Origin: a plasmid
Strand: one strand, 5' to 3'
DNA length: 64,000 bases
Sequence record: NZ_CP118990.1
The position numbers were made by a program, and so were the translations under genes. A model generated the notes under the pieces. That model made no database searches and was not told the origin of the DNA. It saw only the letters and a list, made by a program, of their open reading frames with translations. Below are positions 43,552 to 57,524 of the stretch, in pieces. Every line of letters begins with the position of its first letter. Positions within the stretch are counted from its first letter, which is position 1.

Positions 43552-43826
43552 ATGTGGATAGTCGATGAACGATCTCCGGGTTGATAGGAGCGACGCAGGG
43601 TCTTGCCATCAACGGCAATCAATGCCCCATCCATCTGCTGCTGGATGGCCTGGGTCCAGCGAATGAATGCTGCCTGAAACTGCTCTGGCTGGATGCGGGA
43701 GATGATCCTGGCGATGGTGTCATGCACAGGAATACCATTTAGAAACAGTCCCTTATCTTGAAGCCATGCCAGATGGACCTCGCCAAAGTCTTCGATGTCC
43801 TCCCACCCCTGAGCGCCACCAATCAC
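43491..43826 (-). pseudogene. ISAs1 (H-repeat) family transposase N-terminal fragment, truncated at both ends and fused to the duplicated 3' end of the 46711 gene
   Basis: GAQGWEDIEDFGEVHLAWL...NGIPVHDTIARIISRIQPEQFQAAFIRWTQ...AVDGKTLRRSY matches the conserved N-terminal region of ISAs1/H-rpt transposases; lacks ~35 N-terminal aa and the entire catalytic region. Confidence 0.6.
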
Positions 43827-43873
43827 AGCGCAAACGGTCAGAAACAGGACATCGTAAAAGGGATAAGAGATTT

Positions 43874-44437
43874 TTGGATGATGTCACACTGGTGGTTTCA
43901 GAAGGGGATACGACGCAGATAGACCACATTGTCGTTGCTCCAACCGGAATATTTGTCGTCGAGACAAAGTTCTATAAAGGCCGGATTTATGGCAAGGAAT
44001 CAGACAAGCAGTGGACCCAGAAAATCTTCAAGAACACCTATAAGTTCCAGAACCCGTTTCGTCAGAACTACAAGCATGTGAAGGCTATTGAGGCACTTCT
44101 TCCCAACATTGGGTTGGCAAACATTCATTCCGTGGTTGTCATGCTCGGGGAATGTGAGTGGGCAAGCAAAGATCGACCAGCAGCTCTCTTCACTTCCGGG
44201 TGGAAAGCGGCGGACTACATTAACGACATGATTGCCAGTGGACAGAAGGTGCTCGATGTCGAAGAGGCCTCTGCGAGGCTCCAGAGTCTCAGGCTAAATG
44301 TTTCTCGAAAGGCTGGGCGCGGTGGTAGGACTATTGCAGAGGCAGTTAAAGAAGGTATTAATGTTCGTGTAATACAAGAATCTAATGGTGATATTGTTTC
44401 GGGTTTTCCAACAAACGTACCAAGGAATCCAAAATGA
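43874..44437 (+). CDS. NERD (nuclease-related domain) protein, apparently N-terminally truncated (TTG start?)
   Basis: QIDHIVVAPTGIFVVETKFYKG...W.Q......YKFQNPFRQNYKH matches the NERD family core; no upstream TM/N-terminal region; abuts the transposase fragment. Confidence 0.55.
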   Translation: MDDVTLVVSEGDTTQIDHIVVAPTGIFVVETKFYKGRIYGKESDKQWTQKIFKNTYKFQNPFRQNYKHVKAIEALLPNIGLANIHSVVVMLGECEWASKDRPAALFTSGWKAADYINDMIASGQKVLDVEEASARLQSLRLNVSRKAGRGGRTIAEAVKEGINVRVIQESNGDIVSGFPTNVPRNPK

Positions 44438-44709
44438 AAAATGAATATAGAGAAATTGAATCCACGCTAGATCTTTTGCTTATGGTGCTGTCTGATTCGT
44501 TTTCTGAATCTGAAAGTATAGAAGTGCAAGAATTTATTGATGTGGGTGAGTATGGAATCGCACTAGAAACTATCATTGACATTATTAATGAAGAGTCAAA
44601 GAACATAACAAATGAAGCTGAGTTTCTGATTGAAAAAGCAGGGAGGATAATGAATATGGATACTGCATCCATTGTGGATAAGATTTCAAAACATATAGAT
44701 AAAGAATAA
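44434..44709 (+). CDS. Small acidic cytoplasmic protein (immunity-like)
   Basis: ATGA overlap with the NERD gene stop; visibly AT-rich coding sequence. Confidence 0.45.
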   Translation: MKNEYREIESTLDLLLMVLSDSFSESESIEVQEFIDVGEYGIALETIIDIINEESKNITNEAEFLIEKAGRIMNMDTASIVDKISKHIDKE

Positions 44710-44710
44710 G

Positions 44711-44953
44711 ATGAAAAAAATCGGTTTAAAATATAGAGCAGTATATCTGCTTGGATTTCCGTTAGCTGGAGTCCTTATAGGGATTGCAGTGTTCGCTTTA
44801 TTCAACTATGTGAATGGGCCTCTAAGTAAATTCGCCTTATATCTGTCCGTTGGTGTTTGGGGGGGGTATGGAGTGTTCTCAGGAACCTATGGATACTTAA
44901 ATCTAAGGAAAATATTAAAGTTAAAGAGAGCTAATGAGGAATCCAAGGATTAA
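44711..44953 (+). CDS. Small two-TM membrane protein
   Basis: Hydrophobic; AT-rich cassette. Confidence 0.4.
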   Translation: MKKIGLKYRAVYLLGFPLAGVLIGIAVFALFNYVNGPLSKFALYLSVGVWGGYGVFSGTYGYLNLRKILKLKRANEESKD

Positions 44954-45000
44954 TTACGGCTCACATGGTTCTGCTATTGGCGTAGCTTTGGGGACGGTTT

Positions 45001-45300
45001 ATGGAAATCAATAACTGGTTTGATTTTATTATATACACAATTTATTTCTTTGGGGTTGTGATAGTTATCCTTCCTACTGGGGTTATCTTTCTTTGGTTGA
45101 CATTGAAAAATCTTGTCAAAATGAGAACCCCGAGATACGAAATAAAGCACTACAAGTATTTCTCTGCAAGAAATATATTTGAAGTGTGTGTTGCAGGTGT
45201 TTTTTCTGTGGCTTTTTCTGTTTGGTATCTGTTTTTTGCCAAAGGGGGAAATCTGTTTCTTTATCCGTCAGAGGTAATGAGATTTTTTTCAGGCGGATGA
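45001..45300 (+). CDS. Small membrane protein
   Basis: Hydrophobic; AT-rich cassette; stop abuts the Rhs fragment. Confidence 0.4.
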   Translation: MEINNWFDFIIYTIYFFGVVIVILPTGVIFLWLTLKNLVKMRTPRYEIKHYKYFSARNIFEVCVAGVFSVAFSVWYLFFAKGGNLFLYPSEVMRFFSGG

Positions 45301-45303
45301 TAG

Positions 45304-45759
45304 TGTGGATCAGGCTCTGGCGTTGGCCCGGCCGCCGTCAGCGGCCAAGTGGTTTGGAAGGCGAGCTACAGCCCGTTCGGTAAGGCCAGCGTCACCACCC
45401 AGGGGCCAACCTTCAACCTGCGATTCCCAGGACAGTATTACGACGCGGAGACCGGGCTCCATTACAACTGGCATCGCTACTATGACCCAGCACTTGGCCG
45501 TTACTTACAATCAGACCGCCTTGGCCTGTTCGATGGGGTGGATACCTATGGGTATGTTCGCGCAAACCCTTTATCTGCCGGAGCGGCGGCTGGTGCGGGT
45601 ATAGCCAGCCTGCTTGGTCAAAGTGCTGGTCTATATGTTTCAGGAAAGGATGTTACTGATTACTGTAATTATGATTTTTCCGCTGTGGCTGGAGCTGCGC
45701 TGGGAGGGGCTTTAGGAGGACCTCTAGGAAGTACAATAGGGCGTTATATTAGCCCTTAG
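45304..45759 (+). CDS. Orphan Rhs C-terminal fragment: end of the RHS core plus a short Gly-zipper C-terminal (toxin) domain; no canonical start
   Basis: SYSPFGKA....[38 protein letters not shown] is the hallmark RHS core terminus (PxxxxDPxGL region); followed by a ~75-aa G/A-rich tail; the frame opens directly after the stop of the preceding gene. Confidence 0.65.
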
Positions 45760-45886
45760 CGCTTTACAATCATTGGACGTCCATTAAGTTCATCAGGGAT
45801 AAATAAAATTCCGGGAAATACTGTTGGCTCTGTGGTTGAAGGTGTTACCGTTGGCTCGGGTGAATTATTTGGTAAGGGGTTTTAAT

Positions 45887-46239
45887 ATGATGTGGATTGT
45901 TACGGCCATGTACTTTGTTGTTGTATCAGGTCTTTTATTAGTAGGGTTCGTTGTTTATGGGAAAACTCTATTTTTCCTGGGTAGGTCCGGTGCCTTTGCT
46001 AAATATGTGGGGGGGGGGGTATTGTTTACGTGTTGTTTGCGTGTGTATTGGTTGCACCGTTATTTATTGCTCCCGTGTTTATCAATGGGTGGCGTGAAGC
46101 TTTTAATTCTAATGTGGTTTATGCAGTTTATTTTATGGTGCTTTTTGTTTTAGCAGCATTACCGGGTGGGCTGTATTTCAAAAAGAATTTCTTATCTCGT
46201 CTGAGAAGGCTTGGCTACTTTAAGAAAAGGCAGTATTGA
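45887..46239 (+). pseudogene. Putative membrane immunity protein split by a frameshift at a G11 homopolymer (46009-46019)
   Basis: AAGGGG RBS and ATG at 45887; a hydrophobic N-terminal ORF and a hydrophobic C-terminal ORF (46030-46239) overlap in different frames exactly across the G11 tract. Confidence 0.45.
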
Positions 46240-46287
46240 GAACGGCTTGAAATATTGCCACCAGCGGTTAAGCCTGCTGGTGGCGTA

Positions 46288-46607
46288 GGGAAGGTGCGAA
46301 TAAGTCACCAAACATAAAAATGTGTGGGATGAAAATAAAGTTTCATCCTTGCAAATAAAGTGTCATCCCAACGGGATGAAAGCATTGATTTTGCTGGGCT
46401 GTAGCCGTTCTTACTGCTCAAATCACTGACTTTAGGATGAAACTTTAACCATCGTAGCGGGCTGGATCGCAACGTAATTTCTGGGTTTCAAGGCGGCGAA
46501 AGGATGAAACTTTATTTTCATCCAACAAAATGCGCCCTTGTAAGTATTTGAATTTAATGAACTAAATTTTTCTGTTTCGTTGTGGAGGGTGCTTATTCGC
46601 ACCCTCC
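46288..46607. mobile_element. ISAs1-family-derived miniature element (MITE): terminal inverted repeats GGGAAGGTGCGAATAAG / GGAGGGTGCGAATAAG, no transposase
   Basis: Left end gggaaggtgcgaataagtcacc at 46288; right end (reverse complement) ggagggtgcgaataagcaccc at 46607; interior carries GGATGAAA inverted-repeat motifs (46326, 46360, 46437, 46501). Confidence 0.5.
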
Positions 46608-46608
46608 A

Positions 46609-46770
46609 TAAATTCAAATATCTGATGGTCATCAATGACGATAATAAGAAGCGGGTATTGGTAACTGTATTTGAACGAAAGGAATAGTTGAGTAATTTGT
46701 CATATAGATCTTATTCTGCAAGGTGTAAAAAATCGGTGCCGACTAGGCAGTTATCGGACAGATCGCCTTG
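46609..46770. repeat. Direct repeat copy 2 (~162 bp)
   Basis: Identical to 43389-43551; begins immediately after the MITE right end. Confidence 0.85.
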
Positions 46771-47253
46771 AAAAAGCAGAGTAGAGATCTCTTGCTCTGT
46801 AATTAAATTATTGCTTTTAAGAACATTTATTAAGGCTGTATCAGCAATATCGTGGAATCCCTCAATAAGGTCTTCCACCATTGCGGCAGCCTTTCGTTCT
46901 TCTTCGCTTTTCCCCATCGACCCGTCGCAGAGCCAATCTTCCACATTGCCGTATTGGGCAACGTAACTGAGTTGTTCGCACTCATGCGCAATCAGCCCAG
47001 TAACTCTCTCCATGAGTAGGTCATCGTAGGTGGGGAGTACCAGCACTGCGCCATGGCCTGGGATGTTGCGTTGGACCGTCGCCTCACTCTGAGGGCTACT
47101 TTTGAGCCATGAGAAGGCCCAAAGACCAGAACCGATCTTTTCAAGAAATATGCCTCGCTCGGAGAAGAAATCGGAGACATTTTTGAAGATGGTGCCACCT
47201 GGAGCGGCCATCGAATAGATGGATGCCATTAGCTCATCCTGACTCATGTACAT
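46711..47253 (-). CDS. Hypothetical protein (180 aa)
   Basis: AGAGG RBS before MYMSQDEL; C-terminal 18 aa identical to the fused tail of the transposase fragment because of the direct repeat. Confidence 0.5.
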   Translation of the reverse strand: MYMSQDELMASIYSMAAPGGTIFKNVSDFFSERGIFLEKIGSGLWAFSWLKSSPQSEATVQRNIPGHGAVLVLPTYDDLLMERVTGLIAHECEQLSYVAQYGNVEDWLCDGSMGKSEEERKAAAMVEDLIEGFHDIADTALINVLKSNNLITEQEISTLLFQGDLSDNCLVGTDFLHLAE

Positions 47254-47644
47254 TCACACACACCTCTTGACTTGTTAATTTGTTTGTATAAGCGACCATC
47301 ACCGGGTCGATAATAAATCACGATCCTTGTACTAGACTTGTATAAGCAAAGATTGTACCAGTAGTACGGATTTCGAGTTAGGTTGCACAGTAAACTACCC
47401 GACAGACTATGACTGATAAAATTAAACTGCATCAGATTTTAGTCTATTCGATTGTAGACTGCTGAAAAGAGGATTAGCTCAAAGTGCGGGGGGAACTTAA
47501 ATGGCTCATTGCGCTGAGTGTTTCTACACAATGAGCCATTTAATTGACCCTCTACAAGGGGAGGGAGTGACTGTTGGGGCTTTGAAGAGGCACCTAAGAC
47601 AATAGGCGTAAACCGCCAACTATTGGGCGGAAGCGACACGTCTG

Positions 47645-48676
47645 TCAGGCGTCTTTCTTTACCTTGTGGAAGGAGCTGGTGACGTCGTTGCGCCAAGCGT
47701 CATAGGCTAGGTGCAGCACTTCTCCCTCAACCCGGAACCCTTCACCATCAAATTCGATCTTACCAATAGTCACTGGGCTCAGTGCCTTCGGCGGCCAAGT
47801 CTTCACATCCCAAGAGCCGGATACCAAACCGCAGTTATGAGCTTGGTGTCCGCCCATGCGGGGGGAACGAGCGAATTCTAACAAAGCAGCAATGAAAAAG
47901 CCCAGTTCGATCTGACTGACTGACTTGAGGGACATGCGGTGCTCCATCACTGTACCGGCGCAGATCGCCTCGTATTGGTCGATGGGGCGACGTATAGACT
48001 CCCGAGCCTCCCCCTTCTGATCTTTGCGATCTTGGATTTGTGCGTCCAATGCCGCGAGCTGGTCAAACAACACCCTTTTCTCGTCGTTCGGAGCCGTTTT
48101 CAACTGTTTTTTCAGCTCTTTTTGCTTGTCCTTCAATACTCCGACGTCGGCGGAGGCAAGGGTCTGCTCTTCCAAAATGGTTTGGAGCCGGTTTCTTTCC
48201 GACTGATCCAGTGTTTCGAGGAGCTCCGGGGAGCGTTCAAACATGATGGTGCGAGCACCACCACCAAACATGGCCGTTGCATTGGCCGTGATGGGGAAGC
48301 CGTTCCCTATGTTAGCTTTTGATGGAAGCCCCCATATGCCGAAGAGACTCAGCATCGGGTTGCCTTCGCGCAAGTGTCGATCAGAGTTCACCTCGTCGTC
48401 GGCAGGGGCAGAAATATCTCCCACAATGTCTACCCCTTGGGCCAACATGAAATGCTCTGCCAGGTCAAATGGTGGGCGTTGATTGTCTTCATTGAACATC
48501 AACACAACCCGGTGCGCAGCATGGCGCAATGAACCACGGGTAGTCGTTGCAGGCCAATAAGCTGGGGCATCGAACCCGCCATTACGTGGCAGGCGGCCCT
48601 GGGTGTTTTTTATGGTGACGGTCAAGGGCTCAACTGCGGTCAGGTGGCCGTCGAAAACAAAGGTACTTTGAGTCAT
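47645..48676 (-). CDS. csf2: Csf2, type IV Cas7-like backbone protein
   Basis: RAMP-like G-rich region PATTTRGSLRHAAHRVV; size 343 aa; last gene of a csf1-cas6-dinG-csf3-csf2 operon. Confidence 0.6.
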   Translation of the reverse strand: MTQSTFVFDGHLTAVEPLTVTIKNTQGRLPRNGGFDAPAYWPATTTRGSLRHAAHRVVLMFNEDNQRPPFDLAEHFMLAQGVDIVGDISAPADDEVNSDRHLREGNPMLSLFGIWGLPSKANIGNGFPITANATAMFGGGARTIMFERSPELLETLDQSERNRLQTILEEQTLASADVGVLKDKQKELKKQLKTAPNDEKRVLFDQLAALDAQIQDRKDQKGEARESIRRPIDQYEAICAGTVMEHRMSLKSVSQIELGFFIAALLEFARSPRMGGHQAHNCGLVSGSWDVKTWPPKALSPVTIGKIEFDGEGFRVEGEVLHLAYDAWRNDVTSSFHKVKKDA

Positions 48677-48694
48677 GGAAATTCCTTGTTGATG

Positions 48695-49393
48695 TTAAAT
48701 CAGCTGGTGAAGCATTTCAGAACGGACCCTTTGGGGGGCGACAATGGGCATTTTTTCTTTTGAGTAATACGGAGGGAGCAGTGGCGATAGGCCTGGTACC
48801 CCATCGATCCCGGATGATACCGGGAGTGGTCGATTAGCCTTATCCAACAGGATAAGGCTGGCATCTTCCTGCATGGGGGTGATGATCAGATTATCAAAGG
48901 CTCCCATCTGGCAGTTCTGAGCGTCGTAACCTAAGCCCAGAACGAAAAAATCCAGCAACCCCTTTATCAGGTAGGGATTCCCCAATCCATCGAACACTGC
49001 AAAAGGGGCTTGGTAAGCGGGCATCTCCCGCAAGCGTCGTTTGGTCGGTCCTCCCTTGAGCTTGATCTTCACATAGCGTCCTTTGCCGTTGGGGGCAAAC
49101 ATCGCCGGAGATAGTTTCTCGGGAGTATGCCGATCTGCTCTGACGTAGCTGCCGACAGTCAAGCCAACGGCCATCGTGACACCGAATCTCATTGCCGAGG
49201 CATGGAAGACACCAAGTTGGTCGTTATAGAGAAGGTAGTTGCTCATTTCCTGCAAGAGTTCTTCCCTGCTGGCAAGTGGGGAGCGCTGGCTCAGAGCCTC
49301 AAAAACCAAAGCATCAAGAGTTGGGGGGTAGTCAGTTAATACCACCGGGGTCTTTAACGACATGACCAGGCGAAAGGGTTCAAATTCGAACAT
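48695..49393 (-). CDS. csf3: Csf3, type IV Cas5-like protein
   Basis: N-terminal LKTPVVLTDYPPTLDALVFEAL pattern typical of Csf3/Cas5; 232 aa; start overlaps the dinG stop. Confidence 0.55.
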   Translation of the reverse strand: MFEFEPFRLVMSLKTPVVLTDYPPTLDALVFEALSQRSPLASREELLQEMSNYLLYNDQLGVFHASAMRFGVTMAVGLTVGSYVRADRHTPEKLSPAMFAPNGKGRYVKIKLKGGPTKRRLREMPAYQAPFAVFDGLGNPYLIKGLLDFFVLGLGYDAQNCQMGAFDNLIITPMQEDASLILLDKANRPLPVSSGIDGVPGLSPLLPPYYSKEKMPIVAPQRVRSEMLHQLI

Positions 49394-51342
49394 CAGAAGT
49401 AAACCTCCAATGGAGTTGCAGGTGATTGCTCGCCGTCAGTTAACAGCCCTTTGGCCTGCCGGTACTGTTGCAGAAACCGAACGGGAATGATGTTTCGCAG
49501 GATGGCGTGTTTGGACGACAAATCGTGAGACAGTGGGAAACGGGGATCGAGAATATCGACTTCAATGCAATCGTCAGGTGAACGGATCCCGCGGCCAATG
49601 GCTTGTCGCATCAACCGAATAACGGCGTTTTGAGTACGCATATACTCCTGCTTGTAGAGCTGTTTACTCAGGTCAGTCTTCTTGGTCTTCTTGTAGAAAC
49701 TTACCAACGCTTCGACTTCGGAAGTGCGTGGTTGGCCGTAGGCAATTCGAGTGATCATCAGGCGATCGAATCCAACTGAGCCAGCGTCATCGGTGATATT
49801 GAGCCCGGTATGGCCCGCAGCGGTGATCATTACTCCCCGGCCATGATGTCTGCATACCTTCTTGAACTCTTCAATCAATGATTTGAGTGGGGTGCCACGC
49901 TGGTGGACCAGCACCTGCCGATGCTCAATTTGAGCCAAAACTGCGGCCAATTTACGGCTCTCTTCATGTGAAGCTGTCAGCACAACCACCCGTCCGCATC
50001 GGTTGGTGATCTGATGTGCGACTGCTTGCAACCATTTTTCAGAAAGGGCAGGGGCATTCCCCTCAGAGGACGGTCTTGAGTAGATAGCCGGGAACGAGGG
50101 GCCCGCCAGAGTCAGGGTCATGCTCCCATATTTTTTCGGGGAGAAAAGGGCAATGGCGCCGAGCATGGTGTCATCAATACCAAGTTCCATTCGCAACGAA
50201 GTGGTACCATTCACTGGCTCAGGCGTGATACTCAGTGTGCCGGAGGTGAGGAGAACAGACTCAAAAGCTGAGGTCGCGTATTTCCCGAAGAACCGAACAA
50301 ACCACGGGGAGAGTGAGACGATGGCCGGTTCCCGGCGTATCAGTGAAACGCCGATCCCCATGGACGAGGTTTGCATCATCAGGAGCTGCTGCTGCAAAGA
50401 TGTTGAGACATCCTTATCCAGGTTATTCAACCGGCAAATCTTCTCGATCTTTCCAATGGTGGCCCGCGCCAGTTCCGCCAGCTCGGTATCCCAGGCATAT
50501 TGCTGCATCCCCAGCCGCTCTTGGATTGTCTTAATTGAATTAGCAAGAGGGGCTAATTGCCGAGCTGATAGTTGCTCGCCCAACTGGGAGGCGACACGAA
50601 CAAGATTCAGGCGCCGCTGAGTCCATTCTTGCAACCGATTCACCAGGGCATCAGCTTCATCAACAATCAGCACTGTCGGCCGTGACTTATCGGCCAAAAG
50701 CGCATTATTTCGCAGCATGTCTACTGCGATCATGGCATGAGTTGTGACCACGATGTCGCATTTAGATTCAGCCTGTTGCTGTTCGTCAAATGCCTCATTT
50801 TCACACTCAGCCGTCAGGCAAATTTGAGAGGCCAACAAGTCGCAGGGGAGTCCGCCAAACTCATCCTCAAATTCTGCAATCGTCCCTGACCAGTCACGCA
50901 AAGTAGCCACTTCGCGCTCCTCTAGGGCTGACAGAGAGCGGTTGGTGAGGGCAATATTGATCCGCTTTGGCGATACGAAATTGACCCGTCCGAGAAGACG
51001 GCCGATAGACAACGGTCTATGTCCATAATGACGGGCGACTTTGGTCAGCAGCACACTGTCTTTTTCGAGAAGTTGTTGCATCAGTGCGTGGCTGTGTGTT
51101 GCGACGATAACCCGAGGGCGACGTGGGTCGCAGAGTGCAAACTGCATGGCTGGCAAGAGATAGCCCAGCGACTTTCCGAGGCCGGTGTCAGCGTGAAGAA
51201 GCGATATTTTCCCGGTGTCAGCCAGCACTTGCTCAATCATTAGCGCATATTGGGTCTGCTCATCCCGAGCGATGAGGCCGCCAGCGGCCATCAGCTCTCC
51301 GAACTTGGCTGTGTGGATCCCGTCCTCTGGCAAGGGGCTCAT
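49393..51342 (-). CDS. dinG: Csf4/DinG, type IV-A Rad3/XPD-like helicase
   Basis: Helicase motif I HADTGLGKSLGYLLPA; motif II VLIVDEADALV; DinG/Rad3-like insert regions; 649 aa. Confidence 0.75.
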   Translation of the reverse strand: MSPLPEDGIHTAKFGELMAAGGLIARDEQTQYALMIEQVLADTGKISLLHADTGLGKSLGYLLPAMQFALCDPRRPRVIVATHSHALMQQLLEKDSVLLTKVARHYGHRPLSIGRLLGRVNFVSPKRINIALTNRSLSALEEREVATLRDWSGTIAEFEDEFGGLPCDLLASQICLTAECENEAFDEQQQAESKCDIVVTTHAMIAVDMLRNNALLADKSRPTVLIVDEADALVNRLQEWTQRRLNLVRVASQLGEQLSARQLAPLANSIKTIQERLGMQQYAWDTELAELARATIGKIEKICRLNNLDKDVSTSLQQQLLMMQTSSMGIGVSLIRREPAIVSLSPWFVRFFGKYATSAFESVLLTSGTLSITPEPVNGTTSLRMELGIDDTMLGAIALFSPKKYGSMTLTLAGPSFPAIYSRPSSEGNAPALSEKWLQAVAHQITNRCGRVVVLTASHEESRKLAAVLAQIEHRQVLVHQRGTPLKSLIEEFKKVCRHHGRGVMITAAGHTGLNITDDAGSVGFDRLMITRIAYGQPRTSEVEALVSFYKKTKKTDLSKQLYKQEYMRTQNAVIRLMRQAIGRGIRSPDDCIEVDILDPRFPLSHDLSSKHAILRNIIPVRFLQQYRQAKGLLTDGEQSPATPLEVYF

Positions 51343-51911
51343 AACACCTCCAGGTTCGACAACTGGCCGTAGCCAAATACCCGCTTACGGCCAATGCCAT
51401 AAACAACAGCCTGCTCGGCCAGCGCAACATCCTTGATCTCAGCAACGACACTGACCGGGTTGCACTGGAGGGTGAAGCTCTGTTTTTTCTTGAGGTAGCG
51501 CTCCAGGTAGGGGCTGTTGGCTGAGTGGCTCTGGAGCGAGAGTCCTGCCCCTTCGCACTGCCTGGCTAGAACATCAGGCAAGATGGCCATCGGCAGATTC
51601 ATCGACCGTTTTTTGGTGGTGCCTGGGATCGGATGCTTGATTGGGAAGCAGAAGTTGAGGTTGAACATGACTGCATCTGCCACGTTCAGTTCAAGTTGTA
51701 CGGCTTGTTCGCCAGCTAGGCCAAGTTGCGTTGCCGATCGCAAGTAGATAACGGTTGTGTTGGGCTCATGAGGGTGAGCAATCCGCCGCCAGCTATAGGG
51801 GACTTTACAGCGCAATGTCTCCTGTACCAAATAATCAAGACGCTGGTGGACCAGATACGGAAGAGACGGGTCAGTTTCACGCAGTTTGAGGGTGTTTTCA
51901 TAGTAAATCAT
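51339..51911 (-). CDS. cas6: Cas6-family crRNA endoribonuclease (Csf5; Cas6e-like)
   Basis: C-terminal glycine-rich loop GIGRKRVFGYGQLS characteristic of Cas6; 190 aa; CRISPR repeats nearby are I-E-like. Confidence 0.6.
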   Translation of the reverse strand: MIYYENTLKLRETDPSLPYLVHQRLDYLVQETLRCKVPYSWRRIAHPHEPNTTVIYLRSATQLGLAGEQAVQLELNVADAVMFNLNFCFPIKHPIPGTTKKRSMNLPMAILPDVLARQCEGAGLSLQSHSANSPYLERYLKKKQSFTLQCNPVSVVAEIKDVALAEQAVVYGIGRKRVFGYGQLSNLEVL

Positions 51912-52744
51912 TGGAGCTTGTCCGCGATGTGAATCAGCTTGAGGCGCTGGTGGGGGTCCGCCGGTAAAGTGCGAAATATCGTGCCGAACGATGGTTTTTT
52001 GCTGATCTGTTCACTGGCCTGCTGGGGGGTAATGCGTCCGTTCGAGAGGCCAACGACTAACTTATTGAAGGCGTTGCGTTCCTGACTTGTTAGTGTGTTG
52101 AGCCCCCCTGATAGCCGCATGGCCGCATCCAGATTAACCGTGCATTCGACTCGGGTAACTGAATCCATACCGGCGTCACTACAGCAGTAGAGCGCCTGCG
52201 GTGACAGAGATATGGTCAACCCTCGCATAAGCGCCGCGGTTTTACGTCCGAAAGATTCGATGTATAGCAGAGGGAATTTTGCATTCTCTGCGATCCATGG
52301 CAGGTGACCACCAACGGTAATCTTCACCACATCGACGTGCTCTAAAAATGATGCAGGGAACTTGTCATACACCCCTGGTGGGGCTAGGAGCGTTGAACGC
52401 TGAGGCTTACCTGGGACATCTGCAATTTCGTGCACCCAACCGACACCACTCATCATTCCAAAGCGCTGGCCCACCTTCTTGTCGCTTTTCCCGGCAGTTC
52501 GCTCATTACCCATGATGTTGGGGTCGGTCACAAACATGGCCTGGCAAGGAGCACAGTGGTTGAACGGCGTTTTATAGCTATCCAGACCTTGATAACCCAC
52601 ACGGTCAAACGAGCTTGCAGGGCGCTTGCAGCAAGAACATGCCGCACCAGTCTTTACAGCTTCTCCCAAGGCTGGAGCCAAAATATGGGTGAGGTTGGCA
52701 TAAAGAAGATCAATTGGATGTTGCACGTCACCTCCGAGAAACAT
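51908..52744 (-). CDS. csf1: Csf1, type IV large-subunit-like protein with zinc finger
   Basis: Cys cluster CSCCKRP...CAPC near the N-terminus; 278 aa; first gene of the operon. Confidence 0.55.
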   Translation of the reverse strand: MFLGGDVQHPIDLLYANLTHILAPALGEAVKTGAACSCCKRPASSFDRVGYQGLDSYKTPFNHCAPCQAMFVTDPNIMGNERTAGKSDKKVGQRFGMMSGVGWVHEIADVPGKPQRSTLLAPPGVYDKFPASFLEHVDVVKITVGGHLPWIAENAKFPLLYIESFGRKTAALMRGLTISLSPQALYCCSDAGMDSVTRVECTVNLDAAMRLSGGLNTLTSQERNAFNKLVVGLSNGRITPQQASEQISKKPSFGTIFRTLPADPHQRLKLIHIADKLQ

Positions 52745-52865
52745 TCTGAAACAGTTTCACATAAGATAATAGATTTCTTTTTTTTGTAAAGAGGCAGGTC
52801 CTTGATAATCGACCGTTTTTAGTGGCCTGGTAGAAACGGGTGCTGTATAAGCTAAAACCTCGGTA

Positions 52866-52989
52866 TGCCGCCCTTTGGCGGGGGTTAGCGGTTTGAGCCA
52901 GCGCAAAAACAAGCCAGAGCAGAGCCATGCTGGAGTGCCTCCCAGTGGCGGGGGTTAACAGATGAATGGCAACCTCTGGGGTTGAACGG
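52866..52989 (+). CRISPR. Vestigial CRISPR mini-array: 2-3 degenerate repeats adjacent to the cas operon start
   Basis: tgccgccctttggcgggggttagcgg (52866), tgcctcccagtggcgggggttaacag (52936), ctctggggttgaacgg (52971) resemble the main-array repeat ..CCCCCGCAGGCGGGGGTTAACGG. Confidence 0.4.
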
Positions 52990-53088
52990 AGGTAAAGCTC
53001 CGGGGGCCATAGCCCCTATGTTGGGAGCGCCATGTTCAGTGACATTTTACCAACGGAACAAAGTTCTGGTGTTATTTCAGGGGGAAGT

Positions 53089-53751
53089 ATGAAGGGTAAT
53101 ATAATTTCATGGAAAGATGAAAAAGGCTTCGGCTTTATAAAAAATGATGAGAATGGCGAACATATATTTTTTCATATATCGAGCGTTATAAAAGGGACGA
53201 GGCAGCCTATTGTTGGTGATGCAGTTACATTTGATGTAGGGGTTGATTCCAGCAACCGAAAAAAAGCAAAAGATATTTTTATTGAAGGGGTGTCATTTAC
53301 CAATATCCCAAGGCGAGTATTTACGGAAAAGGTTAAGCGCGACCGTTTCGATTATTATTGTTACGTCGCGATAGTGTTATCAGTGGCAATAACACTCGCT
53401 GTGTATATTAAAATGGGGCAGCCTCGACTGGCATTATTTCCCGCCGCCGTTGCTATAATGCTGTTTTTGTATATCTCCGTCCGTACTAAAAAACCTGCAA
53501 ATGACATATTCTCATGCGGGAAATGCTCATCAGTGGTTAGACATGACGCAAGAACCATTCGGGCATGGAATAAGGGTGCGTGTAAATTATATTGCAGAAC
53601 CTGCAATCAGAACTGGCATCGTGAAAAGCCACAAAGGGATAGCACTAAAAAATATAATCGCCCTCAGAAGTCTGGATGTCTAGGGGTATTATTATTTATA
53701 ACATTCGTGCCGGTATTTTTAATTTCAAGCATCATCACCTTACTGGTGTAG
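53089..53751 (+). CDS. Cold-shock-domain protein fused to a membrane (DUF1294-like) region with a CxxC...CxxC zinc-ribbon insert
   Basis: N-terminal CSD KGFGFI...GEHIFFHISS; two or more TM helices; CGKC...CRTC. Confidence 0.55.
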   Translation: MKGNIISWKDEKGFGFIKNDENGEHIFFHISSVIKGTRQPIVGDAVTFDVGVDSSNRKKAKDIFIEGVSFTNIPRRVFTEKVKRDRFDYYCYVAIVLSVAITLAVYIKMGQPRLALFPAAVAIMLFLYISVRTKKPANDIFSCGKCSSVVRHDARTIRAWNKGACKLYCRTCNQNWHREKPQRDSTKKYNRPQKSGCLGVLLFITFVPVFLISSIITLLV

Positions 53752-53793
53752 AAAGAAATGTTGAAGCCTTGTTGCCTGGACTATTAACTGAAT

Positions 53794-53827
53794 GAGCCTC
53801 ATCATAATCATGGGTGAGGCTTTTTTA
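53794..53827 (+). terminator. Rho-independent terminator
   Basis: gcctca...tgaggc hairpin followed by T6. Confidence 0.55.
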
Positions 53828-53907
53828 ATGGCCCGATAAAGGGCGAAAAGTGTCGCTCTCAAATTGCCACGCACTGACCGCGTTTCCCAAGTCGATGACA
53901 CTGAATA

Positions 53908-54040
53908 GTGTACAAACTTTATTATGCAAGTGACTGATCTGTAGTGTCCGTTGTGTACAAACTTTACTGTCCGAGTCACCGCTACGCCGTGTTTGCTGCG
54001 TACAAACTTCATTGTCACTGTACTGCTTGCGCAGCCTAAC
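53908..54040. repeat. Three direct repeats with 45-bp period carrying G(T/C)GTACAAACTT
   Basis: gtgtacaaactttat at 53908, gtgtacaaactttac at 53953, gcgtacaaacttcat at 53998. Confidence 0.7.
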
Positions 54041-54222
54041 GGCGCCTGCGGCCACAGTACAGACAACCCCGCATTGCGTACTTCTCCATGCCCTCCTTCA
54101 CACACAGAGGCTCAAGCGTGTCTCTGTGTGTCTCTACTTATTAAAATGATTCTTTGAAAAAGTAGTGTTTATAAAATAGGATAGTTGGCAGGAAAGTCCT
54201 TCATTTTTCACGGAGAGAACGC

Positions 54223-54753
54223 ATGAGAGAGGTGCACTTCATTAGCCAGGTCGAGGCCGAAAAACTGGCGCCGGTTGCCGGTGCGGCGATGATCTCGATC
54301 ACCGACCCGGACAAACCGGAGGCGGCCCTGGGAGATTGGCAACTCTTGTATCGGGACAGCTTTTACGATGGTGGCTACAGTGAGGACACCATCCGTACCA
54401 TGAAAGGGTCTTTTCGGATGAGCTACGCATCCTACATTGACTCCCATCAGGCGAAGAACCTATCCAACTACATCGATGAGCTGGTGCAGAGCGGCATCAG
54501 CCAGATCTTTGTTCACTGCTACTACGGGGAATCCCGAAGTGGCGCGATTGCTTTGTATCTGTGCAACAAACATGGATTCACCTCGAACAAGCCCATCACC
54601 AAGCCTAACAGGACGGTCTACGATCTCCTCTGCTCCCCTTTGAAATATGAAGCACTGATACAGAGTTACGAAACACAAGATGCTGCGCCTACCGAGAGTA
54701 TCTACACCAAGATATGGGATTTATTGCTCGTGGCTATCGGTGTTAGGAGGTAA
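54223..54753 (+). CDS. CX5R protein-tyrosine/dual-specificity phosphatase-like protein
   Basis: Active-site signature VHCYYGESRSG (HCxxGxxRS); GGAGAG RBS. Confidence 0.5.
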   Translation: MREVHFISQVEAEKLAPVAGAAMISITDPDKPEAALGDWQLLYRDSFYDGGYSEDTIRTMKGSFRMSYASYIDSHQAKNLSNYIDELVQSGISQIFVHCYYGESRSGAIALYLCNKHGFTSNKPITKPNRTVYDLLCSPLKYEALIQSYETQDAAPTESIYTKIWDLLLVAIGVRR

Positions 54754-54755
54754 CT

Positions 54756-55760
54756 TTGCACCAACGGAACAACCGCGACACCACTGAACTTTCACACGCG
54801 AAAGTCATTGTCTTGCCAGAACAAACCTCAGGTGGAGGCCTCCCGCAAGTCACCGGGGGGCTCAGAAGCGCACAAGATAATCCGGCAGTTGCATACCTGA
54901 TCAGCCTTGGCTCCAGGCGCAGTCGGCAAACCATGGGCTCATTTCTCAGCATTGTTGCTCGGATGATCGGGTACCAAAACCTGCGTGATTGCGCGTGGGA
55001 GTCGATGCGGCGGCATCATGTCCAAGCTGTGATCCAAATGCTCAGTGACTCTGACCGAGCGCCAGCTACGATCAATACCTACCTGGCAGCGCTGAAAGGA
55101 GTTGCCCTGGAAGCGTGGACAATGAAGCTGATTGATACCGACAGTTACCAGCATATCAAGCAGGTGCGTTCGGTGAGAGGCTCTCGTTTACCCAACGGGC
55201 GGGCCCTCGAAAAGCACGAGGTCAGAGCCCTTTATTTCACATGTGAAAACGATCGGAGCTCCAAAGGGCTGCGTGACGCAGCCATCCTTGCTGTTTTAGT
55301 CGGGTGCGGACTTCGGCGCTCAGAGGTTGTCGCCCTCGATATGGAATGTGTCATCACCAGGGATCAGGCACTTCGTGTGCTCGGTAAGGGCAATAAAGAA
55401 CGCATCGCCTATGTGCCTGACGGGGCATGGCAGCGGCTTATGCGGTGGGTGGAGGAGGTTCGTGGTGATCAGCCGGGATCGCTGTTTCAGCGGATCAGGC
55501 GGTTTGATGATGTCACCGCCGACAGAATGACTGACCAGGCTATCTATCACATTCTTGAAACGAGAAGGATTGAGGCGGGGCTGGAAAAATTCGCTCCTCA
55601 TGATCTCCGCAGAACCTTTGCATCGGCCATGCTGGATAATGGCGAGGACATCATCACGGTCAAGGATGCGATGGGCCATGCCAGTGTCACGACCACGCAG
55701 AAGTATGATCGTCGGGGAGATGAGCGATTGAAACAGGCCAGTCGGCGACTCGATTTTTGA
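54756..55760 (+). CDS. Tyrosine recombinase/integrase (XerD/phage-integrase family)
   Basis: C-terminal catalytic motifs HDLRRTFAS...GHASVTTTQKYDRR (R..HxxR..Y); TTG start with AGGAGG RBS 5 nt upstream; overlaps the upstream stop; contains one ATTTCACATGTGAAAA palindrome. Confidence 0.75.
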   Translation: MHQRNNRDTTELSHAKVIVLPEQTSGGGLPQVTGGLRSAQDNPAVAYLISLGSRRSRQTMGSFLSIVARMIGYQNLRDCAWESMRRHHVQAVIQMLSDSDRAPATINTYLAALKGVALEAWTMKLIDTDSYQHIKQVRSVRGSRLPNGRALEKHEVRALYFTCENDRSSKGLRDAAILAVLVGCGLRRSEVVALDMECVITRDQALRVLGKGNKERIAYVPDGAWQRLMRWVEEVRGDQPGSLFQRIRRFDDVTADRMTDQAIYHILETRRIEAGLEKFAPHDLRRTFASAMLDNGEDIITVKDAMGHASVTTTQKYDRRGDERLKQASRRLDF

Positions 55761-55888
55761 GTCGGAAGACCAATGTTAATCAGTTGCGCACTCAGAATTT
55801 AAGAGGTAAATTTCAGCCACCAATCCTCAAGTGTGCGAACATCGCTGAACGTGACCTAATCTTGATGGTAATTGTTGACTTGGTAAGT

Positions 55889-56584
55889 ATCGCCCCCCCG
55901 CAGGTGGGGGTTAACGGGCGTGTAAAGCGTCCAACGTGACTTACAGAAAATCGCCCCCCCGCAGGTGGGGGTTAACGGAGTGGATGCATTTGCTGACTTC
56001 CACCGATGAATCGTCCCCCGTGCCTGGGGGTTAACGGTACTCGGCCTGGCACAACATGGACCTCACCCGATTTCTCCCCCGCAGCTGGGGGTTAACGCCG
56101 CGAGGGGAGCTGTTGCTATAGCGGGAATGAATCCCCCACCGCAGGCGGGGGTTAACGGCGTCAGCACATCACACAGCTATTGAGCACCAGATCGATCCCC
56201 CGCAGGCGGGGGTTAACGGTTTTCGATGATGTCGGTGGCGTTTGCCATCATATCGCCCCCCGCAGGCGGGGGTTAACGGACGCTGATAACGCATATCGAC
56301 GACGGATTTGAATCACCCCCCCGCAGGCGGGGGTTAACGGCCCGCGGGATAGAGAAGTGGTGCCATCAGCGCATCTCTCCCCCGAGCCTGGGGGTTAACG
56401 GTGCCCTTTTTGTGCACAAACAAAAAAATCAAAATCCATCCCCCTGTTACGGGGGTTAACGAAGCGGGACGTCGTGGTGCTGTGCTGCGGCTGCATCTCC
56501 CCCCAGCAGGCGGGGGTTAACGTTAGCTTCACACCAGGCCTTGATAGCATCGCCGATCTATCCCTCGCGACTGGGGGTTATCGG
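55889..56584 (+). CRISPR. CRISPR array, 12 repeats of 28-29 bp with 11 spacers of ~32 nt; consensus ATCGCCCCCCGCAGGCGGGGGTTAACGG; repeats unusually heterogeneous
   Basis: Period ~61 bp; conserved 5' ATC + C-run and 3' GGGGGTTAACGG; loop and stem flank vary between units; terminal unit degenerate (ttatcgg); geometry and stem-loop resemble type I-E/IV-A3 repeats; AT-rich leader-like 128 bp upstream. Confidence 0.8.
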
Positions 56585-56772
56585 GAGGAAGCATGGCACA
56601 ACAGAACGTTTTCCTTCTTCGATTGAGGGTTATGCGCGAAATGGCCGCCGACACCGACTCGGTGATCTCTGCCGTCACGGCCGAGCTGCCAGTCGGTTTC
56701 CCTGAGCACATTAGCAAGGCCATTTTTTCTGGGTTGTCGGCTCAAGCAGCCAAGCTTCTGAGAGGGTGAGAA

Positions 56773-57270
56773 ATGGCTGAAATGAGCAATTTTGGGGAAA
56801 GCTTCAAGCTTTATTCCGACGGGCAACGAGATCCTGTCAAGCGCACAGGCCTGAACGTCCAGTACACAGAGACTCGGGCCAACTACCCGACAATCAGCAT
56901 CGAGATCGCTCCCATCCGGGCGGCAGGAGCAAAAGCAGACTGGGAGCAGAAGATCACAGTACAACTGACCAGGGCAGAGCTGACCGCGTTCTGCGGTGTG
57001 ATGTTTGGGCTCAGGAAGGATGCCACAGGGTCATACCATGGTGACGCCAACAACAAGAGCTTCGCGACATACTGCAACGGCAAGTCCGGCGTCGCCATCC
57101 TTCTCATGGCACGAGGGAACCAGTACCAGCACCTCATTACACCCGATGACCGAATGGAGCTAGCTGTATTCGCGATAAGGAGGTTGGCTGAGGCATGGAA
57201 GGTCACCCCTTCTGATGCGATTGCGATGCTCCGTCAAGGGGCGTGGATGAGCAAGAATCAGGTAAATTAG
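56773..57270 (+). CDS. Hypothetical protein (165 aa)
   Basis: GAGGGTGAGAA RBS; followed by terminator. Confidence 0.45.
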   Translation: MAEMSNFGESFKLYSDGQRDPVKRTGLNVQYTETRANYPTISIEIAPIRAAGAKADWEQKITVQLTRAELTAFCGVMFGLRKDATGSYHGDANNKSFATYCNGKSGVAILLMARGNQYQHLITPDDRMELAVFAIRRLAEAWKVTPSDAIAMLRQGAWMSKNQVN

Positions 57271-57285
57271 AATGGGTTAGATAAT

Positions 57286-57312
57286 GAAAATCCCGCTTGA
57301 GCGGGCTTTTCG
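57286..57312 (+). terminator. Rho-independent terminator
   Basis: aatcccgc-ttga-gcgggctttt. Confidence 0.6.
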
Positions 57313-57524
57313 AAATTTGGGGTGGCCCTGCATGACAGGGCCAGTACGAACCTAGTGTCATCACCAGTAAGGTAGCTGGGAGAGGACGGAGCCTAGAAGT
57401 AGAGATCCCGCTAGGTCCTCTTATTTTCAATTGGCTACTCTTGTCTGCTCTTGATTTGCACTTGTTTAATACTGATTCCGCCGCGGTTACTCTCCTCCTG
57501 CACCTGACCAAACGGAGAGAAATT

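Follow-up and report, generated by a model that had tools for sequence, protein, structure and literature searches.

The plasmid record NZ_CP118990.1 was analyzed over a stretch of 64,000 nucleotides (nt; the window), in which a set of type IV cas genes and an array of short palindromic repeats, clustered and regularly interspaced (CRISPR), lie on the two sides of an interval running from position 52745 to 55888. A type IV-A3 effector operon, complete and ordered csf1–cas6–dinG–csf3–csf2, is encoded on the minus strand from 52744 down to 47645. The genes are csf1 (Cas8-like; 51908–52744; PADLOC Csf1_2_IVA3, 2.2e-65), a Cas6e-like cas6 of the IV-A3 kind (51339–51911; Cas6_0_IVA3, 1.5e-23), csf4, encoding the DinG helicase (49393–51342; Csf4_0_IVA, 3.9e-154; Pfam DEAD and Helicase_C_2), csf3 (Cas5; 48695–49393; Csf3gr5, 2.2e-72; NCBIfam cas5_csf3) and csf2 (Cas7; 47645–48676; Csf2_1_IVA3, 2.1e-103; NCBIfam cas7_csf2). 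The identical gene order is present in the Klebsiella oxytoca plasmid pKOX-ea2b, and with PADLOC subtype models, gene order, NCBIfam and Pfam concordant, the locus is assigned by its gene content to type IV-A3. The true start of csf1 is likely the GTG at 52726, which is preceded by a GGAGG ribosome-binding site and would give a protein of 272 amino acids (aa); also the csf1 gene calls in near-identical contigs are 272 aa long. A putative promoter of the operon (TTTACA-16-TATCTT; 52763–52790, minus strand), found by consensus match only, is situated within a block conserved across the window and the related contigs L015 and L020. No match to cas1/cas2 or to a nuclease family was found with Pfam, NCBIfam or PADLOC among the open reading frames (ORFs) scanned from 46.7 to 57.3 kb. 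Directly downstream of csf2, near 47254–47644, no repeat motif was present, the array being at 55889–56584 instead; this is a difference of layout, and the IV-A3 membership by gene content is unaffected by it.

The main array (55889–56584, plus strand) was detected by the repeat search and includes 12 repeats of 28–29 nt with a C5/G5 stem and 11 spacers of 30–32 nt, arranged with a period of 60–61 nt. Its leader of 128 nt (55761–55888, plus strand) begins directly after the stop codon, at 55760, of a TTG-started tyrosine recombinase gene, just as a first-pass annotation made from the sequence had described. The leader is 97–99% identical in contigs L020 and L009, shares the motif AACATCGCTGAA with both leaders of the Aeromonas media plasmid pAeme3, and is present in only three of the 72,556 plasmids of PLSDB. 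Right after the last repeat, a 58-aa ORF (56593–56769, plus strand) represents a C-terminal remnant of hipA (68% over 47 aa to the HipA of L015), and it is followed by a gene for a 165-aa hypothetical protein (56773–57270, plus strand) that is collinear with pAsa4 and L015.

Between the operon and the array, the two genes nearest to the leader are those of a 176-aa protein (54223–54753) and of the recombinase (54756–55760), both on the plus strand. The 176-aa protein has an HCX5R(S) motif (HCYYGESRSG) and is a putative Cys-based phosphatase. The motif read in the first-pass annotation as that of a CX5R phosphatase is thus present, while the match to Pfam DSPc, at 21.6 bits, stays under the gathering score of 33.5, and a PDB sequence search gave no match. 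The recombinase is XerD-like and 334 aa long, which is also its length in the gene calls of PGAP, the NCBI annotation pipeline, in relatives. It matches Pfam Phage_integrase (3.4e-32), and all the motifs of the catalytic set R...K...HxxR...H...Y, here GLRxSE, GKGNKER, PHxLRxxFA and GH...Y, are conserved in comparison to Escherichia coli XerD (1a0p). Since the XerC and XerD matches of NCBIfam are under the equivalog cut-offs, the protein is considered a member of the family and not an XerC or XerD orthologue. Literature searches produced no account of the function of the IncC recombinase.

When the 10.5-kb region 47000–57500 was compared by megablast with the plasmids of PLSDB, 78 plasmids matched, essentially via 54132–55760 alone, and no record with the cas operon was found; neither did a scan of genome contigs with DinG give a confirmed locus. 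In the matching part, Aeromonas plasmids of the pAsa4 type are 92–99% identical to the window, and the IncA plasmid pRA1 and many IncC plasmids of Enterobacterales about 81%. The 176-aa gene (81–99% at the nucleotide level) and the recombinase gene have the same synteny in all 78 plasmids, 75 of which are without such an array. In the CRISPR-less records, among the matches listed, the homology stops at the stop codon of the recombinase. Both in pAsa4 and in pRA1, hipB and hipA come after the pair, and the genes before it are unrelated hypothetical ones. At the other side the homology with pAsa4, pRA1, L015 and L020 begins at 54132, with a conserved promoter/operator region (54132–54222, plus strand) upstream of the 176-aa gene. 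This region includes an imperfect dyad, CTACTTATTAAAATGA...CTTTGAAAAAGTAG, at 54135–54168, which is conserved from pRA1 and IncC plasmids to the window plasmid and looks like an operator; in the IncC plasmid pNDM-KN a Tn7-like element sits between the dyad and the operon of the 176-aa and recombinase genes.

Local blastn showed the window to be collinear with the pAsa4 backbone on both sides of the locus. The left anchor is a gene for a 180-aa hypothetical protein (46711–47253, minus strand), 78% identical at the nucleotide level to pAsa4 (L005 4131–4798) and 72% at the amino acid level to the homologue in L015. To the right of it, pAsa4 has genes for 276-aa and 213-aa proteins where the window has the cas operon, degenerate repeat units and a gene for a protein with a cold-shock domain (CSD). 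Then follows in both plasmids the pair of the 176-aa gene and the recombinase, after which pAsa4 has hipBA and the window its leader and array, until the 165-aa gene forms the right anchor in both. The homology with pAsa4 resumes at 56632, inside hipA, and as a C-terminal remnant of that gene survives to the right of the array, the array is concluded to have displaced hipBA. By this synteny the 176-aa gene and the recombinase are identified as backbone genes of the pAsa4/IncA/IncC conjugative plasmids, and not as parts of the CRISPR system. Most probably, then, the type IV-A3 components occupy two variable slots of the backbone, one on either side of the plasmid's own pair of 176-aa and recombinase genes.

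The same split layout was found in two further lineages. L015, found via a homologue of the CSD protein (56% aa), contains the cas operon, a small array of four units, the CSD gene, the 276-aa and 176-aa genes, the recombinase, a large array and an intact hipBA; in comparison to the window, its cas operon is 83% identical at the nucleotide level, its Cas proteins 85–90% at the amino acid level and its backbone pair 81% at the nucleotide level. L020 and L022, of Aeromonas veronii, were found via a Csf1 homologue (88% aa) and contain the cas operon, the 276-aa, 213-aa and 176-aa genes, the recombinase, the leader with an array of nine repeats, and a hipA remnant, the cas operon being 87% and the backbone pair 92% identical to the window at the nucleotide level. 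Relative to pAsa4, the left junction lies at one place, about L005 4930, in all the cas-bearing lineages (window, L015 and L020), across which the divergence of the cas operon is similar to that of the backbone pair. For these reasons the split layout is concluded to predate the split of the lineages, and it is judged to be old, being common to lineages about 13–19% diverged. The related loci thus have the same gene content and no sign of an insertion. Search with the leader and array also recovered three PLSDB plasmids, NZ_AP022242, NZ_AP019196 (L001/L002 10753–11757) and NZ_AP022282, one example being Aeromonas caviae pWP8-S18-CRE-01_1. In these, the leader and an array of 17 repeats, with eight spacers in common with the window, adjoin the backbone recombinase, with genes of the pAsa4 type on the left; no cas operon or DinG homologue was found anywhere in the three plasmids.

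Some variation was observed also among the closest relatives. The variant contig L009 (7481–8999, 98% identical to the window) has two ORFs of 59 and 105 aa in place of an undivided 176-aa gene, and a recombinase gene call of 348 aa; its array, with a different spacer order, is followed by a helix-turn-helix gene. To the left of the cas operon, about 3 kb of the window (43553–46608) is missing from the otherwise 99–100% identical contigs L007, L011 and L012, which join 43552 to 46609 with an overlap of 164 nt, a backbone indel. Two candidate counterparts were rejected: a 176-aa protein following the cas operon of L023 is unrelated to the 176-aa protein of the window, and the two hypothetical proteins that L001 encodes left of its phosphatase-like gene show no relation to either Csf1 or the CSD protein.

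Next to csf1, the repeat search placed 52867–52892 and 52937–52962 in one family with the repeats of the main array. These correspond to relic repeat A (GTATGCCGCCCTTTGGCGGGGGTTAGCGG, 52863–52891) and relic repeat B (GAGTGCCTCCCAGTGGCGGGGGTTAACAG, 52933–52961), which flank a spacer-like stretch of 41 nt (52892–52932), all on the plus strand. The 12-nt motif of the repeat 3' end, GGGGGTTAACGG, with at most two mismatches, was present on the plus strand at 52880, 52950 and 52978 in addition to the 12 array repeats, and over the whole window it had 20 hits against 4.2 expected, a number reached by none of 100 shuffles. On both strands of the whole 64 kb, A (16.3 bits) and B (13.2 bits) scored highest of all matches outside the array with a position weight matrix derived from the 12 array repeats, the maxima in random windows being 6–16 bits. 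In folding, the hairpin of unit B has the register of the array repeats, and that of unit A is shifted. The doubtful unit C (52961–52989, plus strand) abuts B without a spacer, matched the 3' motif only, with two mismatches, and was outside the top weight-matrix hits; its status as a repeat is weak. Of the repeat-like units that the first-pass annotation had placed here in the orientation of the array, A and B were therefore confirmed and the third is doubtful. Tandem Repeats Finder detected nothing, the main array included, because the identity is interrupted by the spacers. From one unit to the next the distances are 70 and 28 nt, and not 61 nt as in the intact array, which shows that the small array is no longer intact.

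In the orthologous intergenic region of L015, four units recur regularly every 62 nt or so, on the strand that leads away from csf1. Unit A and the next 30 nt agree with unit 3 and spacer 3 of L015 in 44 of 52 positions, and this 85% identity equals the neutral background divergence between the two loci. The 41-nt stretch looks chimeric, its 5' 30 nt resembling spacer 3 and its 3' end resembling the end of spacer 2 of L015. In the sister clade L023/L025, whose Csf1 is 66% identical, over 40 units (7228–9801) form an array directly upstream of csf1 and divergent from it; its leader adjoins csf1, and the repeats are identical at the leader side and progressively degenerate distally. Since L015 has four regular units and L023/L025 a large array at the same position, the units next to csf1 are identified by this comparison as the decayed native array of the cas block, divergent from csf1. 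That they are vestigial, as had been supposed, is thus upheld, the array being better kept in L015 and fully developed in L023/L025. The contigs L020 and L022 have neither the units nor the CSD gene, with their cas operon and array intact. An HD-domain gene was observed after csf2 in L023/L025.

The relic spacers had no full-length match, with up to 30% mismatches allowed, in the window or in the compared loci, and neither did they match in PLSDB, a plasmid database, chromosomal and phage targets being outside this search. An AAG-flanked seed match was not found for the relic spacer in the window nor for the small-array spacers of L015 in L015, and neither set shared 8 nt or more with the upstream regions of the cas and CSD genes. 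In 52600–56700 Rfam had no match, either to the repeats or to any other sequence.

The region upstream of the small relic array has no similarity to the pAeme3 leaders or to AACATCGCTGAA. As the main array has a leader of its own that shares the pAeme3 motif, and the relic upstream region does not, the main array is concluded to be a second, independent array and not the distal half of one that was split. Spacer 6 of this array (56220–56250) matches the traA pilin gene of six Aeromonas plasmids, pAeme3 included, in 29 of 31 positions, and its protospacer has a 5' AAG protospacer adjacent motif (PAM) on the strand identical to the spacer, from which the plus strand is concluded to be the transcribed strand of the array. 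None of the other main-array spacers matched in PLSDB. The match to traA of pAeme3, which itself carries a related IV-A3 system, suggests targeting of plasmids by plasmids. The arrays of near-identical plasmids differ in spacer content, also at the leader end, which indicates that spacer turnover is ongoing. Two spacers are in common with L015 with one or two mismatches (55918–55949 and 56220–56250 against L015 12724–12755 and 12663–12693), in a different order and with surrounding loci 17–19% diverged, which suggests either that plasmids exchange arrays or spacers with each other or that the same protospacers were repeatedly a source of new spacers. The large array of L015 (11783–13031) has repeats ending TTGTCGG, and its small array (7735–7950) keeps the TTAACGG ending, found also in the window, L023 and pAeme3, so that L015 has one cas operon and two repeat variants.

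To the right of the relic units, the CSD gene (53089–53751, plus strand) encodes a protein of 220 aa with an N-terminal cold-shock domain (Pfam CSD, 2.5e-10; PADLOC CSD_V, 7.7e-8), hydrophobic, transmembrane stretches at 87–133 and 193–221 and a Cys-rich segment, the latter features seen in hydropathy. The domain and the hydrophobic stretches bear out the cold-shock-domain membrane protein named in the first-pass annotation. The real start is probably the ATG at 53089 and not the start of the longest ORF at 53032, the former being preceded by a ribosome-binding site, GGGGGAAG, that is conserved together with the start codon in L015. After the gene, a terminator-like hairpin with a T-run (53794–53827, plus strand) is predicted from the sequence. 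In the assembly collection the exact protein is present in 68 blocks, and those contigs that are longer repeat the layout of the window. The family includes 119 homologues, and the members whose context was examined are chromosomal: in Stutzerimonas, in a metagenome contig and in two Aeromonas chromosomes, no cas genes were found around them, which speaks against the CSD gene as an accessory part of the CRISPR locus. Between the window and L015 the CSD protein is 56% identical, against 85–90% for the Cas proteins, and the gene is absent from L020/L022. It is best read as lineage-specific cargo, and a defence-related role of the CSD protein itself is possible.

Between the CSD terminator and the start of the backbone homology, three copies of GTACAAACTTYAYTRT are present 45 bp apart, at 53910, 53955 and 54000 (53910–54015, plus strand; three hits against 0.09 expected). 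They belong to a motif of 16–25 nt, GTGTACAAACTTTATTGTCAC, that occurs in the window three times with a 45-bp period and elsewhere in L005 (6944), L015 (about 9925), L020 (4986–5242), L013 (7022–7071), L033 (11283–11332) and L035 (503–560 and 19305–19382). At the place of the window copies, pAsa4 and L015 have one copy with the terminus ...TTGTCACTGCACA, and L020 has five copies in both orientations. The contigs L013 and L014 are 99.9% identical to the window up to 54109, where two inverted copies follow, and beyond these a protein of 399 aa that matches TniQ weakly, and then a type I methylase. In an Aeromonas sobria chromosome, a restriction-modification island is closed by this same end. 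In pNDM-KN a complete element is present at the homologous site, upstream of the operon of a 178-aa gene and the recombinase; it is annotated with TnsA, a DDE transposase, an ATP-binding protein and a TnsD-family protein, carries defence cargo, and has the termini TGTGCAGCGACAATAAAGTTTGTACAC...GTCGCTGCACA and a 5-bp duplication, GGCAT, in comparison to the empty site in pRA1. Since the same repeats form the termini of this element at the same site, 53910–54015 is considered the relic of a Tn7-like transposon end. The core of the repeat presumably resembles the TnsB sites of Tn7. The window has the three repeats and a decayed terminus, the intact termini and the GGCAT duplication being found only in pNDM-KN against pRA1; no tns genes and no opposite transposon end were found in the window. 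As judged from its repeats, the relic is oriented with the interior of the element to the left, towards the CSD gene and the cas operon, and it marks the boundary between accessory DNA and backbone. A left-hand end near 47345 (AAAGATTGTAC, conserved in all lineages including pAsa4) was considered and is too weak to claim.

In the order of events that would best fit these observations, the left slot received the cas operon, its native array, now decayed, and the CSD gene as cargo, which would have replaced or joined the two hypothetical genes of the backbone, the accessory block being closed by the relic of the Tn7-like end. The right slot begins at the stop codon of the recombinase, where a second array with its leader may have been inserted upstream of hipBA; in the lineage of the window the array would later have deleted hipB and most of hipA. 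Physical linkage is presumably unnecessary for the processing and loading of CRISPR RNA (crRNA), and Cas6 and the Csf proteins would work in trans, on RNA transcribed from the array at a distance of 3 kb. The Csf complex with DinG may then silence or exclude competing conjugative plasmids, and new spacers would come from a host Cas1–Cas2 in trans. Useful guides are probably no longer made from the relic units next to csf1.

Several points weigh against this reading. The processing in trans and the inactivity of the relic are both steps that we infer. The CRISPR-less state of the backbone is taken as ancestral by parsimony, which is not proof, and loss of the CRISPR parts from pAsa4, pRA1 and the IncC plasmids is possible. 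The junction of the leader, exactly at the stop codon of the recombinase, is the same in three lineages, a possible hint of some site-specific event in which the recombinase took part. Finally, the CSD gene has been kept beside the relic array in two lineages 17% diverged, and this could mean a functional link between them.

The first-pass annotation had proposed that the interval is a module of about 3 kb, either a mini-element with an integrase, together with the phosphatase-like and CSD genes, that had inserted into the array or its leader, cut the array from csf1 and left repeats behind, or a set of accessory genes of the CRISPR locus. The repeat-like units that remain beside csf1 in the orientation of the array and the exact meeting of the recombinase gene and the leader would agree with an insertion. 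However, the comparison with loci without the interval gave the opposite of an empty site, the pair being present in 78 plasmids between the same backbone genes, pAsa4, pRA1 and the IncC plasmids included, and the CRISPR parts absent from 75 of these. Furthermore, the interval is composite, with backbone homology only from 54132 and the CSD gene, missing in L020, on the accessory side; the main array has a conserved leader of its own; and the layout is shared by lineages 13–19% diverged. Direct repeats resembling attachment (att) sites do not flank the interval, as no word longer than 9 nt is shared by 52745–53100 or 53700–54230 with 55650–55900; a 23-nt pair at 53039/54750 and a 10-nt pair of TTCACACACA were rejected, being at chance level and off the homology boundaries. 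An inserted mini-element therefore has hardly any probability left. The accessory role fails on the same distribution, the pair being without CRISPR in 75 of the 78 plasmids and L020/L022 being without the CSD gene. Another explanation concerns the relic units themselves, which could be a regulatory mini-array of the CreR/CreTA type: the Csf complex, guided by an RNA resembling a crRNA, would repress the cas promoter or the CSD gene, or cleavage of the repeats by Cas6 would control the CSD messenger RNA. Two degenerate repeats do flank a spacer-like stretch beside the cas promoter, as has been described for CreR and CreTA, unit B keeps the canonical hairpin, the CSD gene is next on the same strand with no promoter detected in between, the mini-array and the CSD gene are paired both in the window and in L015, and type IV-A acts by repression rather than by cleavage. 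On the other hand, neither an AAG-flanked seed nor complementarity of at least 8 nt to the cas and CSD upstream regions was found in the window or L015, the spacer has diverged at the neutral rate and is apparently chimeric, the spacing of 70 and 28 nt is irregular, and L020/L022 lack both units and CSD gene and yet have their cas operon and array intact. Mini-arrays were moreover present in only 6% of the IV-A loci in a published survey (PMC10120712). A regulatory role of the relic is unlikely and, taken as an explanation of the units, decidedly improbable, even though the target could lie beyond the sequences searched.

A further reading concerns the origin of the left slot and is compatible with components in two slots. 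According to it, a Tn7-like transposon that homes to the promoter region of the phosphatase-recombinase pair brought in as its cargo the cas operon together with the native array and the CSD gene, and the transposition genes were later lost. It is favoured by the three end repeats with their 45-bp spacing and their interior towards the CSD and cas genes, by the complete TnsA/B/C/D element of pNDM-KN, which has the same termini, a 5-bp duplication and defence cargo at the homologous site, and by the related element that is inserted at window position 54109 in L013/L014 and closes the A. sobria island. However, neither tns genes nor an opposite end were found in the window; the same solo end is present in pAsa4, which has no cas genes, so that the end may be older than the cas operon; and on its left side the cas block joins within sequence that resembles backbone. 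Such an origin is rather unlikely, though worth keeping in mind. A more general form of it, that IV-A3 modules on A/C-type plasmids are assembled from separately mobile pieces, with a Tn7-like cargo of cas operon, native array and CSD gene and an independently exchangeable unit of leader and array, is a speculative proposal and held to be unlikely; in a stronger version of it, the relic array and the CSD gene may form a unit coupled by Cas6. If it were true, the cas-less sister plasmids would keep an orphan array and use the Cas proteins of co-resident plasmids. The reading of two variable slots around the backbone pair is the one followed below.

Among known systems, the IV-A3 loci of Klebsiella and other enterobacteria (pKOX-ea2b; p1530 of Benz et al.) resemble that of the window in gene set and order, in repeats of about 29 nt ending GGGGGTTAnCGG with spacers of about 32 nt, and in the AAG PAM and plasmid-targeting spacers; beside the operon of the window, no adaptation genes were found among the ORFs scanned from 46.7 to 57.3 kb. 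For Klebsiella IV-A3 an AAG motif, targeting of plasmids in inter-plasmid conflict and acquisition of spacers in trans have been reported (doi 10.1101/2023.06.23.546257), and the match of spacer 6 agrees with this. Unlike them, the window has a DinG only about 35% identical to theirs, its array is not downstream of csf2 but 3.1 kb upstream of csf1, past two backbone genes, and transcribed away from the operon, and a second, decayed array is present beside csf1. The closest annotated plasmid relative is the IV-A3-like locus of A. media pAeme3 (NZ_CP038446), with DinG 62% identical, a pair of arrays, of which one lies some 5 kb from the operon, and leaders with the same motif as in the window. 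It differs in having another backbone, with arrays downstream (convergent) and far upstream and no recombinase pair between, and it is itself targeted by spacer 6 of the window. The pAsa4/IncA (pRA1)/IncC backbone shares with the window the operon of the 176-aa gene and the recombinase, the neighbouring 180-aa and 165-aa genes and Tus downstream, and differs in having hipBA at the position of the array and unrelated genes or a Tn7-like restriction-modification island at that of the cas operon. The relic resembles the CreR/CreTA mini-CRISPRs in that degenerate repeats (A and B) flank a single 41-nt spacer-like stretch beside the cas promoter; in contrast to them, promoter complementarity with a PAM was sought and not found, and among close relatives the element of the window undergoes decay and loss. 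Tn7-like transposons that carry defence cargo share the several end repeats of the GACAATAAAGT type by the terminus, and a complete TnsABCD relative occupies the same plasmid site, whereas the window has one decayed end and no tns genes. Literature searches found no account of type IV systems on Aeromonas plasmids or on plasmids of the pAsa4 type.

The locus is thus of type IV-A3 with an unusual but explicable layout. It extends the host range of IV-A3, so far studied on enterobacterial plasmids of the IncHI1B/IncFIB type, to the Aeromonas pAsa4/IncA/IncC family, a backbone family of importance in carrying antibiotic resistance. Over long evolutionary time, backbone genes can keep the cas operon apart from its array, and the integrase beside the CRISPR leader is here a positional accident of the plasmid architecture and not a new mechanism of adaptation or mobility. 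The Tn7-like attachment hot spot upstream of the phosphatase-recombinase operon gathers defence cargo, and the three cas-less plasmids with arrays are candidates for the use of Cas proteins in trans.

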